Positions 14,480 through 23,204 of a stretch of DNA of 23,442 nt are shown piece by piece. The first letter of the stretch is position 1; each line of letters opens with the position of its first letter. Location: IMG/VR virus record IMGVR_UViG_2648501361_000004; one strand, 5' to 3'. The position numbers were made by a program, and so were the translations under genes. The stretch comes from a virus (lineage: Duplodnaviria; Heunggongvirae; Uroviricota; Caudoviricetes). The notes under the pieces are model-generated. The model ran no database searches. It was not told the DNA's origin and saw only the letters and a list, made by a program, of their open reading frames with translations.

Positions 14480-15180
14480 TGGCTGATTCGAATCTCAACA
14501 CCCCTGTTATTGTGCAGGCGACGCGGCTCGATACATCAATCCTTCCACGCAATATATTCAGCCAGTCTTACCTGCTGTATGTCATTAATCAGGGGGCTGA
14601 TGTCGGCGCAATTGCCGGGAAAGCAAATCAGGCTGGTCAGGGCGCTTACGATGCTCAGGTGAAAAACGATGAACAGGATGTCGAACTGGCTGACCACGAT
14701 GCAAGAATCACCGCAAACACAAAAGCGATAAATCTCCTTGAGGTCAGGTTAACAACCGCCGAAGGGAAGATAGTTGTACTGCGTAGCGATGTTGATTACT
14801 TGCTGGATGAGGTTATCGATATTCAGGCGCATCTGGTCACTGTTGACCAAAGACTGGATGGCGTAGAAAGCGATATATCTGACATTAAGAGTGATTACGT
14901 ATCGAAAACCGTAACAGAATCGCAGTCTCTTGCGTCACCGCTGGATGTAAAAACATCATATTCAGTTGATGGAATTCAGGTCGTTGGAGCAAGGCAGACC
15001 GGATGGACAGCGGCCACAGGCACACCACTTCTTGGCTCATTCAACGCTAACCAGTCATACACGGTCGGCACTACGTACACACAATCCGAAGTCGCAGCTA
15101 TCGCTACAGGTTTGGAGCAGGCGCGGCAGCGTATTCTGGCGCTTGAAACAGCACTTAGATTACATGGGCTGATTGACTGA
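14479..15180 (+). CDS. Tail needle protein (P22 gp26-like)
   Basis: 233 aa from the ATG overlapping the gp10 stop. [77 protein letters not shown] and the C-terminal [34 protein letters not shown] match gp26 as recalled. The track ORF 14377..15180 is an upstream extension. Confidence 0.9.
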
Positions 15181-20195: not shown

Positions 20196-20615
20196 TTATT
20201 TGTATGAAATCAACGAGTTAAGCTCCCTCTCATTTAGAGATTGGAATCTTTTTTCAGTTATATCAATGATGGCTGGCAATAGTTTTTTTACCTTCTCATG
20301 ACCATCAGGTTTAATGATAGCAATGATCTGGATATGAATTGGATATGTGTTGTGTACCGCAAATATCAAAAAGTTATCGCTAACTCTACGATGTATTGGC
20401 GTTGTTCTTAACCAAGGATCATCTACTCCAGGGATCCTGATGTGCGACTTGTAAATTCCCGATAAGACGGCGTGATGGTTTCTCTCAAACCCACCAATCT
20501 TACCAAGATAAGCTGAAACGGTGCCTCTGTTTTTGTAGTTTGCAAGAGCCTTCGCAAAGTATTGTTCTAATGGTCCAGCCGCTGCATCTACAACAATGCT
20601 TATGCGGTTTTCCAT
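20196..20615 (-). CDS. YafO-toxin-like protein (candidate type II toxin / mRNA interferase); family assignment tentative
   Basis: 139 aa; the C-terminal core VSDNFLIFAVHNTYPIHIQIIAIIKPDGHEK resembles, as recalled, the conserved YafO-family core (SD..LVY...LLIAIL.P..H). ATG start lies 16 nt upstream of the preceding gene's stop (coupling). Confidence 0.55.
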   Translation of the reverse strand: MENRISIVVDAAAGPLEQYFAKALANYKNRGTVSAYLGKIGGFERNHHAVLSGIYKSHIRIPGVDDPWLRTTPIHRRVSDNFLIFAVHNTYPIHIQIIAIIKPDGHEKVKKLLPAIIDITEKRFQSLNERELNSLISYK

Positions 20616-21181
20616 TTTGGTGCTTCCATGCCAAATCTTTTATGTGAATCTTCAACTGATTTCTTGAAGGAAGCCAACTCTTCTTCAGTGAACTCTTCAG
20701 GTTCAGCATATGATAGTGGTATGTGCTGCATTGCTAGCGTCACAAGCCCCATTGTTAGCCTTTTGTATTCTATAAAAGTATTGATTGAGTGGTTTTTCAT
20801 TGTTGTAAGAGTTGACATATGGGGCTTCCACGCATCGCTGTTCTCAGCGATGAAGAAGGTATACAACAGTTTCGCGATACCATAATCAAGCTTAGATATC
20901 TGATCGTTCAACATATCTACATCGTCATGTTGAATATTAAGTGAGGAAATATCTTCTTCTGTACCATTACTTAATATGTCAATGAATGTAATGTACTTTT
21001 TGCAAACTTCCTCTACAGGTGACATAACGCAGTAGATCTTGCTAAGAGCTTCAGAAGCCTGTTTTTTAGACAAAGAGCCGCTATGACTGCGATCAAAGTC
21101 TGAAATTGAACGCTCGATAGATGTTGATATGTCAGAAAAAACGTTTTCAATTTTTCCTGGCTCTTGATTCAGGATGGCCAT
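20600..21181 (-). CDS. Hypothetical protein, first gene of the accessory cassette (candidate partner/antitoxin of the YafO-like gene)
   Basis: ORF open 20600..21199 (GTG). ATG at 21181 with upstream AGG is preferred (~193 aa). Predicted helical, acidic protein with no recognised domain. AT-rich codon usage unlike the structural genes. Confidence 0.6.
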   Translation of the reverse strand: MAILNQEPGKIENVFSDISTSIERSISDFDRSHSGSLSKKQASEALSKIYCVMSPVEEVCKKYITFIDILSNGTEEDISSLNIQHDDVDMLNDQISKLDYGIAKLLYTFFIAENSDAWKPHMSTLTTMKNHSINTFIEYKRLTMGLVTLAMQHIPLSYAEPEEFTEEELASFKKSVEDSHKRFGMEAPKWKTA

Positions 21182-21241
21182 AACGCCTATCTCAATCACA
21201 ATGTATACCTTGTTATTTTATATCAACGAACAAACATTGAC

Positions 21242-21490
21242 CTATCTGGTCTCGTACATTTTTTTCAGGGTTTCAAACACCATCTTCTTAACAATTTCTG
21301 CTTGCTGATCAGCCATACGTTCTGCTTCGTCACGGTAACCTGCAATCGGTGATGGTTTTGATAGCGCATCCTGAACGATTTGTAATAACTCAGAGTTCAT
21401 TGACCTTCCGTTAGCCTCGGCTCTTAATTTCAATTTTTCTCTTACTTCCAAAGGCATACGGAAGTTAAAGTGCGGATCATCTCTAGCCAT
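21242..21490 (-). CDS. mnt: Mnt repressor (ribbon-helix-helix)
   Basis: 82 aa, MARDDPHFNFRMPLEVREKLKLRAEANGRSMNSELLQIVQDALSKPSP..., near-identical to P22 Mnt as recalled. Confidence 0.9.
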   Translation of the reverse strand: MARDDPHFNFRMPLEVREKLKLRAEANGRSMNSELLQIVQDALSKPSPIAGYRDEAERMADQQAEIVKKMVFETLKKMYETR

Positions 21491-21513: not shown

Positions 21514-21777
21514 CTAACTTTCGTCTTTATTGTTGCCATACATGCATTTCAACTTCTCAACATCATGTTCAAGATCTATCAATCGTGATGCTATAGTTGC
21601 AAGGTCTAGTGCTTGAATGTGTTTATTTTTTTCGGTCCATGCTTCAAGTGCAGCGACCATCTCAGCATTTAATGAACGAGAATTAGCCTCAGCCAGTTCA
21701 ATAAGACGTTCCTTTATCTCTACAGGAAGCCTCAGATTCACTTGAGGGTTTTTGTACTTACGATCAGACATCGGCAC
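21514..21777 (-). CDS. Second Mnt/Arc-like ribbon-helix-helix repressor with C-terminal extension
   Basis: 87 aa; PQVNLRLPVEIKERLIELAEANSRSLNAEMV is the Arc/Mnt RHH signature. Reads divergently from arc, directly upstream of mnt. Confidence 0.8.
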   Translation of the reverse strand: MPMSDRKYKNPQVNLRLPVEIKERLIELAEANSRSLNAEMVAALEAWTEKNKHIQALDLATIASRLIDLEHDVEKLKCMYGNNKDES

Positions 21778-21799
21778 ACCCTGAATAATTTTTTACCAC

Positions 21800-21857
21800 A
21801 GGATATGTAGGTGTCTATTGACTATCAATGCGTACCTAAATACTATGTATGCGTACC
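21800..21857. promoter_or_regulatory. Divergent back-to-back promoters with candidate operators (immI control region)
   Basis: Plus strand: -35 TTGACT 21818-21823, 17-nt spacer, -10 TACTAT 21841-21846 (Pant-like). Minus strand: -35 TTGATA (complement of 21823-21828), 17-nt spacer, -10 TATCCT (complement of 21800-21805). Direct repeat ATGCGTACC at 21828-21836 and 21849-21857 (21-bp spacing) and a palindrome GTATG-N7-CATAC overlap the promoter. Confidence 0.45.
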
Positions 21858-21876
21858 ACATACAGCGGAGGATGCA

Positions 21877-22017
21877 ATGAAGGTAAAAACACTGCGTATG
21901 CCAGAGAAGTTAGAAAAAATCCTTGAAGAGAAAGCAAAGGAAGAGTGTCGATCGTTTAGCGCAGAAGTAATTAAACGGGTGCTGGACAGCTTGAAGAGAG
22001 AGGGGGTGATGGTATGA
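21877..22017 (+). CDS. arc: Arc repressor (ribbon-helix-helix)
   Basis: 46 aa from ATG 21877 with GGAGGA RBS: MKVKTLRMPEKLEKILEEKAKEECRSFSAEVIKRVLDSLKREGVMV, parallel to P22 Arc (RSVNSEIYQRVMESFKKEG). The track ORF 21811..22017 is an upstream extension. Confidence 0.8.
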   Translation: MKVKTLRMPEKLEKILEEKAKEECRSFSAEVIKRVLDSLKREGVMV

Positions 22018-22217
22018 GTAAAGAATGTTGTTTCTGCGGCATTAGCGAATCAGACGCTGATCAAACATACATTTACTCTAAAGAAACAGGTCGGATGCTG
22101 TGTAGTGACTGCGTGTTGGACATCATAAGATACAAGCATCTTGGATGTTCTGCCAGCATTAGCAATATAGGTGAAGTATACGAAGGGAAAGATATAACTG
22201 ATAGAGCAGAAAGTTGA
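22014..22217 (+). CDS. Small Cys-rich (zinc-ribbon-like) protein between arc and ant
   Basis: 67 aa with CCFCG...CSDC...C. ATG overlaps the arc stop (ATGA), suggesting translational coupling. No homologue recognised. Confidence 0.55.
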   Translation: MSKECCFCGISESDADQTYIYSKETGRMLCSDCVLDIIRYKHLGCSASISNIGEVYEGKDITDRAES

Positions 22218-22280
22218 AGCCCCAACTGCGGGAACAGTCAGGGCTTCGGTATCGTAAAACCACGCATAGGAATTAACGAC

Positions 22281-23204
22281 ATGAAAAGTATAGCAACAGC
22301 AGTATCTACTATCAATGTACCATTCCACGGCGCAGAGCTTTATGTTGTCAATCACAACGGCGAACCGTATACCCCAATGAAACCTATCGTTGAGGGAATG
22401 GGGCTAGACTGGAAATCTCAACATAAGAAGATTTCTCAACGATTCTCGAATGGTATGGTGGAAATCACCATACCTTCTGCCGGTGGGGTGCAAGCCATGA
22501 TTTGTATGGCTTTACGAAAATTGGCAGCTTGGTTGAACAGCATCAGTCCTAACAAAGTCCGCCCTGAAATCCGCGACAAGGTAATCCAGTATCAGGAAGA
22601 GTGTGACGATGTGCTCTACGAGTACTGGACTAAAGGCCATGTAGTTAACCCACGCAAAGCTAAAAAGGCGTTGCAGGGTAAAATCACCACTGAACAGCAG
22701 GAAGCCATTAAACAACTCGTCATGAGTCGCGGTCAGTCTCTGCCAAAAGAAAAACAGGCTAAGGCGATGATCACCATGTGGTCGTCACTGAAATCCCATT
22801 TTGGATGTTCGTACAAAGAAATCAGTGAGGAGCAGTTTACCGAAGCACTATCACTTGCAGCTCGAGTTCCACTTGAAGGTGAGTTCATTGGCAAACAAGA
22901 GAAGAAAACCAACGAGCTTTCTGCAAAAGAAGTAAACAGCCTTGTATGGCTATGGGATTATGCCAACCGCTCACAGGCATTATTCCGCGAACTGTATCAG
23001 GCGCTAAAACAAATTCAATCGAACTATTCCGGCAGATGCTACGACTACGGTCATGAATTCTCGTATGTTATCGGAATGGCGAGAGATGTTTTAATCAACC
23101 ATACACGAGATGTTGATATTAATGAGCCAGACGGACCAACGAATCTTTCCGCATGGATGAGACTTAAGAATAAAGAATTACCTCCTTCAGTACATAACTA
23201 CTGA
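22281..23204 (+). CDS. ant: Antirepressor Ant (P22 Ant-like)
   Basis: 307 aa, last gene of the arc operon as in P22 immI, followed by an intrinsic terminator. Identification rests on size, position and general antirepressor N-terminal character. Confidence 0.75.
   Translation: MKSIATAVSTINVPFHGAELYVVNHNGEPYTPMKPIVEGMGLDWKSQHKKISQRFSNGMVEITIPSAGGVQAMICMALRKLAAWLNSISPNKVRPEIRDKVIQYQEECDDVLYEYWTKGHVVNPRKAKKALQGKITTEQQEAIKQLVMSRGQSLPKEKQAKAMITMWSSLKSHFGCSYKEISEEQFTEALSLAARVPLEGEFIGKQEKKTNELSAKEVNSLVWLWDYANRSQALFRELYQALKQIQSNYSGRCYDYGHEFSYVIGMARDVLINHTRDVDINEPDGPTNLSAWMRLKNKELPPSVHNY

Follow-up and report, generated by a model that had tools for sequence, protein, structure and literature searches.

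Gene content of the immI region

The window analysed here (the whole 23,442-nt stretch of IMG/VR record IMGVR_UViG_2648501361_000004) is 100% identical to Enterobacteria phage CUS-3 (CP000711.1), a Lederbergvirus, or P22-like phage, whose host is E. coli K1 strain RS218. Pfam searches recover in this window the layout of an immI region, that is, mnt-type genes on the minus strand and, divergent from them, a plus-strand arc-like gene followed by ant (Table 1), with two ribbon-helix-helix genes standing in tandem on the minus strand where P22 has one mnt. The arc-like gene scores 33.8 bits against the Pfam Arc model (cut-off 20.4, E 3e-08) and corresponds in the RefSeq record of UTI89 to WP_000865489.1 (‘Arc family DNA-binding protein’); in CP000711 it carries no annotation. 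The antirepressor gene that ends the operon segment shown in Table 1 bears the label ant in CP000711.

Between arc and ant lies a short cysteine-rich ORF, whose start overlaps the arc stop codon (ATGA) and whose own TGA stop forms the base of the hairpin discussed below, the predicted sar terminator. The ATGA overlap is an arrangement of translational coupling to arc, and the product carries the motif CCFCG...CSDC. The ORF matches phrog_7150, a family of unknown function, over its full length (3.4e-50), and is left without annotation both in CP000711 and in RefSeq UTI89. A Pfam search returned no family for it, even at E 10, and a homologue search returned only five near-identical clusters. 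BLASTP against an approximate sequence of the ClpX zinc-binding domain aligned the CxFCG motif only (E 0.027), and the search against PDB gave marginal matches to the RNF4 RING finger (E 0.005–0.45). The product is probably a small zinc-binding protein.

A promoter scan places divergent promoter-like sites, which are consensus matches only, at 21800–21846. The candidate Pant promoter (21800–21860 region) is overlapped by the divergent promoter-like site of the minus strand, and also by two 16-nt direct repeats (ACTATCAATGCGTACC and ACTATGTATGCGTACC) spaced by 21 nt, which are plausible candidate operator sites for Arc/Mnt-type repressors. Farther to the left, the gene at 20196–20615(-), whose 139-aa product has a YafO-toxin domain (Pfam, 3.2e-11), overlaps the end of the gene for a 199-aa protein of unknown function (20600–21199(-), phrog_18235). 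Both genes belong to the ‘ant moron’, which is flanked by the DNA-transfer gene and mnt, and may represent toxin–antitoxin or defence cargo. The segment 22014–22330, which runs from the Cys-rich ORF into ant, is matched in 649 of 5426 complete E. coli genomes, with at least 80% of it covered in 371 of those 649.

Table 1. Genes, predicted RNA features and candidate promoters around ant in the CUS-3 window (coordinates are those of the window)
Feature	Coordinates	Strand	Basis
Mnt-type gene	21242–21490	-	Pfam Arc + Repressor_Mnt (Mnt C-terminal domain)
Second ribbon-helix-helix repressor gene, 87-aa Arc-family protein	21514–21777	-	Pfam
Candidate Pant promoter, TTGACT-17 nt-TACTAT	21818–21846	+	Consensus matches only; convergent with Psar
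arc-like ribbon-helix-helix repressor gene, 46 aa, first gene in the ant operon	21877–22017	+	Pfam Arc
Cys-rich ORF, 67 aa, between arc and ant	22014–22217	+	phrog_7150
Predicted sar antisense RNA gene, about 69–70 nt	22211–22280 (3' end in UUU 22210–22212)	-	Rfam; blastn to P22
3' tail AACUUU after the terminator stem	22210–22215	-	Short U-tract, identical in P22
SL2, predicted intrinsic terminator hairpin of sar	22216–22247	-	Fold (-22.2 kcal/mol); P22 alignment; covariation
SL1, 5–7 bp stem, loop with anti-Shine-Dalgarno UUCCU (22268–22272)	22251–22280	-	Fold; SL1 types
Predicted sar target: ant Shine-Dalgarno AGGAA (22268–22272) and start codon (22281–22283)	22268–22283	+	cis-antisense
ant, antirepressor, 307 aa	22281–23204	+	Pfam P22_AR_N 1.1e-45, P22_AR_C 5e-29
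Predicted Psar promoter, inside ant codons 2–12	22287–22315	-	-35 TTGATA, 17-nt spacer, extended -10; consensus match

One hairpin, two strands

The sequence GAAGCCC-CA-ACTG-CGGGAA-CAGT-CA-GGGCTTC is present at 22216–22247. Folded as plus-strand RNA, it gives a hairpin of 7 + 4 bp interrupted by a 2x2 internal loop, with a free energy of -17.7 kcal/mol (z -3.9) that none of 200 shuffled sequences equalled, which bears out the original prediction of a long imperfect stem-loop at this place. The same prediction had remarked on the missing U-tract of the plus strand, and there is indeed no T-run 3' of the hairpin on that strand, either in the window (GGTATCGTAAAACC) or in any of 12 sequence variants. 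Its positional statements fared less well: the hairpin does lie near the stop of the Cys-rich ORF, directly after which it had been placed, but it overlaps this codon (TGA, 22215–22217), G22216 and A22217 being the first two bases of the stem, and the spacing to the ant ribosome-binding site, given as about 35 nt, is 20 nt when measured from the end of the hairpin to the Shine-Dalgarno (AGGAA, 22268–22272) and 33 nt to the ATG (22281).

On the minus strand, the same segment forms 14 consecutive base pairs, three of them G·U, around a 4-nt UCCC loop (-22.2 kcal/mol, z -5.75). Two C/A positions of the internal loop and one loop-closing position turn into G·U pairs on this strand, and it is because the C/A appositions become G·U there that the minus-strand stem runs uninterrupted.

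A probable sar RNA gene antisense to the ant leader

Across the 23.4-kb window, RF00262 (sar) is the sole Rfam family found at gathering thresholds. The match, at 22279..22212(-), spans the entire model (positions 1–68 of 68) and scores 84.6 bits (E 9e-17), about twice the gathering score of 43; P22 sar itself reaches 97.8 bits. Blastn aligns window positions 22210–22296 to P22 15021–15106 with 82% identity, and the P22 record (NC_002371) annotates sar at 15021..15090(-), its terminator at 15021..15058, its promoter at 15097..15125(-) and the start of ant at 15091. The predicted 5' end of the CUS-3 RNA, G22280, adjoins the ant ATG at 22281, a layout that matches the P22 annotation; the ends assigned to it here (22280 to 22211/22212) are derived from this annotation, from the 68/69-nt length of the P22 RNA and from the promoter geometry. 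Because the arrangement is cis-antisense, the Shine-Dalgarno and start region of ant is fully complementary to the 5' part of sar, and the anti-Shine-Dalgarno UUCCU on the minus strand faces AGGAA at 22268–22272.

The predicted promoter, located at a position equivalent to the annotated P22 Psar, combines a -35 element TTGATA (22315–22310) with a -10 element TATACT (22292–22287), the latter extended to TGcTATACT (22295–22287). With 10 of 12 consensus matches plus the TG, it is the top site of the region in the promoter scan, and its -10 ends 7 nt upstream of G22280, with the same geometry as between Psar and the sar 5' end in P22. All 80 IMG/VR ant loci, and CUS-3 as well, show the pattern TTGAT(A/T)-N17-TGCTA(T/A/C)ACT, and in this set the hexamers are kept even where N-terminal Ant residues or codons differ. 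P22 and 611R6 have the extended -10 only, with a weak -35 (GTGTTA and GTGTTC, respectively), and EC.P3 likewise shows the -10 only.

As a whole, the 71-nt RNA folds to -29.8 kcal/mol on the minus strand (z -5.1, none of 200 shuffles as good), compared with -20.2 kcal/mol (z -2.2) on the plus strand, and the minus-strand minimum-energy fold consists of SL1 and the 14-bp SL2 followed by AACUUU. SL1 is weak when folded alone (-5.7 kcal/mol, z -1.6). The U-tract after SL2 is limited to UUU within AACUUUCU, and a simple terminator scan did not flag the site; the same AACUUU occurs in P22, where the site carries the sar terminator annotation, and in most relatives the stem is followed on the minus strand by a clearer and longer U-run (e.g., GCUGUUUUU, AACUUUUUU). 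The 3' stem-loop SL2 fits the description of a predicted Rho-independent terminator whose U-tract is short, as in P22.

Every defining feature of sar that is open to testing in sequence is found at 22211–22280(-), and it is very probable that this segment is the CUS-3 counterpart of the P22 sar gene, orthologous to it and specifying an antisense RNA of about 70 nt that is encoded in cis. The hairpin at 22216–22247 is its predicted terminator stem-loop (SL2), and not an mRNA element. The element is an already described regulator that simply went unannotated in CUS-3. The original prediction had suggested a possible counterpart of P22 sar, and the full-length RF00262 match, the P22 alignment and the near-consensus promoter at the place of Psar all support this idea. 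The sar-like antisense RNA that it envisaged also stands, with the functional strand now read as the minus strand and the hairpin as the terminator SL2. As for the parallel drawn with the arc–ant interval of P22, it holds for sar but not for the interval itself, because in CUS-3 an extra 67-aa ORF separates arc from ant.

Conservation of fold among ant relatives

The original prediction had proposed a covariation check across related prophages. This was carried out on 80 viral contigs encoding Ant relatives (85–99% identity), together with P22 and CUS-3, which yielded 26 distinct sar regions, and both SL1 and SL2 persist in this sample with compensatory changes. Terminator hairpins of quite different sequence are found among the relatives, such as, on the plus strand, GAAGCCTCAATGG-CTGCAA-CCATTGAGGCTTC or AAGCCCAAGCTA-TTGCGAG-TAGCTCGGGCTT. 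For SL2, the MAFFT alignment of the 26 distinct sequences has 98.6% of cells paired and both-sided changes at six pairs; none of 500 shuffles reaches its covariation score, and sliding the 3' arm by 1–3 columns lowers the paired fraction to 34–49%.

This alignment was used for SL2 only, SL1 being tabulated from per-sequence folds. The SL1 that RNAalifold returned from the whole-region MAFFT alignment was discarded as spurious, because MAFFT had misplaced gaps in the SL1 loop. In the tabulation, all six SL1 sequence types have a 6-bp helix at sar positions 1–6, with 36 of 36 cells paired, a count that is biased towards pairing, since every helix was read from the predicted fold of that same sequence. 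Pairs 1, 4, 5 and 6 show changes on both sides, whereas pairs 2 and 3 show wobble changes only. Five of the six types have their anti-Shine-Dalgarno (UUCCU or UCUC) wholly inside the SL1 loop; in the remaining one (L034) it overlaps the last stem pair.

Sar-like RNAs also occupy this position, about 70 nt upstream of ant, in eight loci (L005, L011, L033, L034, L048, L063, L065 and L075); they have the same Psar and the same two-hairpin fold, with divergent SL1 and SL2, and score below the RF00262 gathering threshold. Natural sar diversity is thus captured by the Rfam model only in part, most of the divergent sequence classes falling below its threshold. There are at least six types of SL1 and five of SL2, and they combine differently among relatives, so that the 70-nt sar gene is itself mosaic.

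Another case is Salmonella phage S107, where positions 1489–1600 of the contig (L083) give a sar match of 48 bits with a Psar-like TGCTACAAT. The downstream gene is annotated as ‘Rha protein’ and is unlike the Ant of the window in sequence; translation from the annotated start, at 1489, would run through the sar hairpin, and the true start is likely the ATG at 1574, which is preceded by AAGGAAAT. Because the sar of this phage precedes a gene so unlike that Ant, the sar cassette seems to be associated with downstream genes of more than one kind.

Antisense RNA, mRNA element or module boundary?

Could the hairpin act instead in the plus-strand arc–ORF–ant mRNA, without involvement of an antisense RNA, by attenuating transcription, stabilising the message or being processed by an RNase between the Cys-rich ORF and ant? 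The plus-strand hairpin is indeed more stable than chance would give, with the energy and z-score stated above, and since it is the mirror image of sar SL2 it must occur in the ant mRNA, where it could affect the rate of sar–mRNA pairing. However, in all 12 variants the RNA of the minus strand is more stable than that of the plus strand, by 5–11 kcal/mol, and the G·U pairs of the minus strand correspond to A·C mismatches on the other (45 G·U pairs on the minus strand versus 10 on the plus strand over the 12 variants). This asymmetry between G·U and A·C indicates that selection acts on the minus-strand fold. The dedicated promoter predicted on the minus strand, together with the Rfam match, accounts fully for the element. 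A plus-strand attenuator or terminator was rejected on its consistently weaker fold and on the absence of a T-run from every variant, window included, and the attenuator or processing site offered by the original prediction is likewise unsupported in view of the missing U-tract and the G·U asymmetry; we regard such a role as very improbable.

A different reading takes the conserved sequence as mainly a recombination ‘boundary sequence’ between mosaic modules, the RNA being incidental. CP000711 indeed labels window positions 21790–22271 as ‘bsq2; boundary sequence’, and among relatives at least 10 unrelated contexts are found upstream of the hairpin, with an abrupt switch after which hairpin, SL1, Psar and ant stay similar. 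A pure linker, however, predicts conservation of sequence and not compensatory changes of base pairs, whereas SL1 and SL2 change in sequence yet keep their pairing, along with the promoter hexamers and the U-run. An incidental RNA is in our opinion extremely improbable on these grounds, and a role as module boundary is in any case compatible with sar function. The preferred reading is that of a sar gene on the minus strand.

A variable slot between arc and the sar terminator

The stretch from arc to the sar terminator varies among relatives. In some of them the Arc-type gene ends right at the hairpin; otherwise the slot holds one of at least five unrelated small ORFs, of 67 aa in the window and 73, 89, 80 and 57 aa elsewhere (the variants compared upstream of sar hairpins being those of L010, L022, L043, L014, L087 and L088, together with window 22014–22217(+)). 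The TGA stop of the extra ORF straddles the edge of the sar terminator, its T preceding the stem and its G and A being the first two stem bases, and the A-rich last codons of the slot ORFs encode the sar U-run on the other strand. It is a speculative and rather unlikely proposal that the junction between arc and the sar terminator is a preferred slot for cargo genes, and that the sar classes are specificity groups conferring heteroimmunity at the RNA level. If it were true, sar pairing or termination could also influence the expression of the cargo gene, and the sar of a prophage would silence the ant of a superinfecting phage only within the same class.

Proposed mode of action and its P22 background

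In the proposed mechanism, RNA polymerase would start at Psar within the first ant codons, on the opposite strand, run leftward over the ant start region and the Shine-Dalgarno, and stop at the G+C-rich SL2 (22216–22247) followed by AACUUU. The loop of SL1 would display the anti-Shine-Dalgarno UUCCU, and SL2 would serve as terminator and probably stabilise the RNA. The whole of sar would pair with the leader of ant mRNA, covering it between position -1 and about -70 and reaching into the last codons of the upstream ORF; this would bury the ant ribosome-binding site and block translation of the antirepressor, which would help the phage to establish and maintain lysogeny. The stop codon of the Cys-rich ORF, with the one or two codons before it, would presumably lie within the duplex too. 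In P22, Psar is suppressed while convergent transcription from Pant is active, and sar acts mainly after Arc has repressed Pant.

What has been computed here for CUS-3 is the family match, the promoter, the two-hairpin fold, the covariation, the strand asymmetry and the synteny; synthesis of the RNA, its pairing with ant mRNA and the repression of ant translation are taken from work on P22, from which we infer the CUS-3 transcript, its ends and its effect on ant. PMC12197685 and PMC7968456 describe P22 sar as an RNA of 68/69 nt whose pairing with ant mRNA blocks the initiation of translation, and the former presents it as needed for lysogeny to be properly established. Small-RNA sequencing detects sar in P22 infection (PMC13397905), sar is annotated in the P22-like phage epsilon34 (PMC2629481), and it belongs to the immI region with mnt and arc (PMC11016777, PMC2629481).

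The CUS-3 element resembles P22 sar in being antisense to the ant leader in the same orientation, with a 5' end that abuts the ant ATG, a promoter that lies within the first ant codons and shares the extended -10 (TGCTATACT), two hairpins with the anti-Shine-Dalgarno in loop I, and a terminator hairpin that is identical but for one loop base and is followed by the same AACUUU tail. It differs in the sequence of SL1, which is almost wholly different while the helix is kept, in being about 1 nt longer, in a Psar -35 that is nearer to the consensus (TTGATA versus GTGTTA in P22), and in overlapping the 3' end of the 67-aa Cys-rich ORF, whereas P22 sar overlaps arc. The surrounding immI regions also differ, that of CUS-3 having two mnt-like genes and an additional ORF between arc and ant, and so do the hosts, E. 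coli K1 for CUS-3 and Salmonella for P22.

Other phages make comparable RNAs. The OOP RNA of lambda ends at an intrinsic terminator, as does sar; it overlaps the 3' end of cII and acts via mRNA cleavage, whereas sar covers the 5' leader and ribosome-binding site and acts on translation initiation. Both are short cis-antisense phage RNAs with their own promoter and a part in the lysis–lysogeny decision (PMC12197685). The c4 RNA of P1 and P7, likewise small and structured, protects lysogeny by blocking the ribosome-binding region in an ant mRNA, but it is trans-acting and recognises its target through short complementary stretches, probably in loops (PMC12197685), while the CUS-3 element is encoded in cis and complementary over its full length. 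The Rfam scan of the window revealed no sequence or family relationship between c4 and the CUS-3 element.

Implications for CUS-3 and its hosts

The presence of sar in CUS-3 mostly confirms textbook phage regulation, and part of its value lies in annotation: the CUS-3 GenBank record labels the stretch only as ‘boundary sequence’, and the UTI89 RefSeq record carries no annotation for either sar or the Cys-rich ORF. The CUS-3 prophage is associated with neonatal-meningitis E. coli K1. A comparative paper of 2008 took arc to be apparently absent from CUS-3 and suggested that ant must be under another kind of control there than in P22 (PMC2629481). The arc-like gene, the predicted sar gene and Psar found together here counter this suggestion, and because all three are present, control of ant in the CUS-3 prophage is, as far as can be read from its sequence, most likely P22-like.
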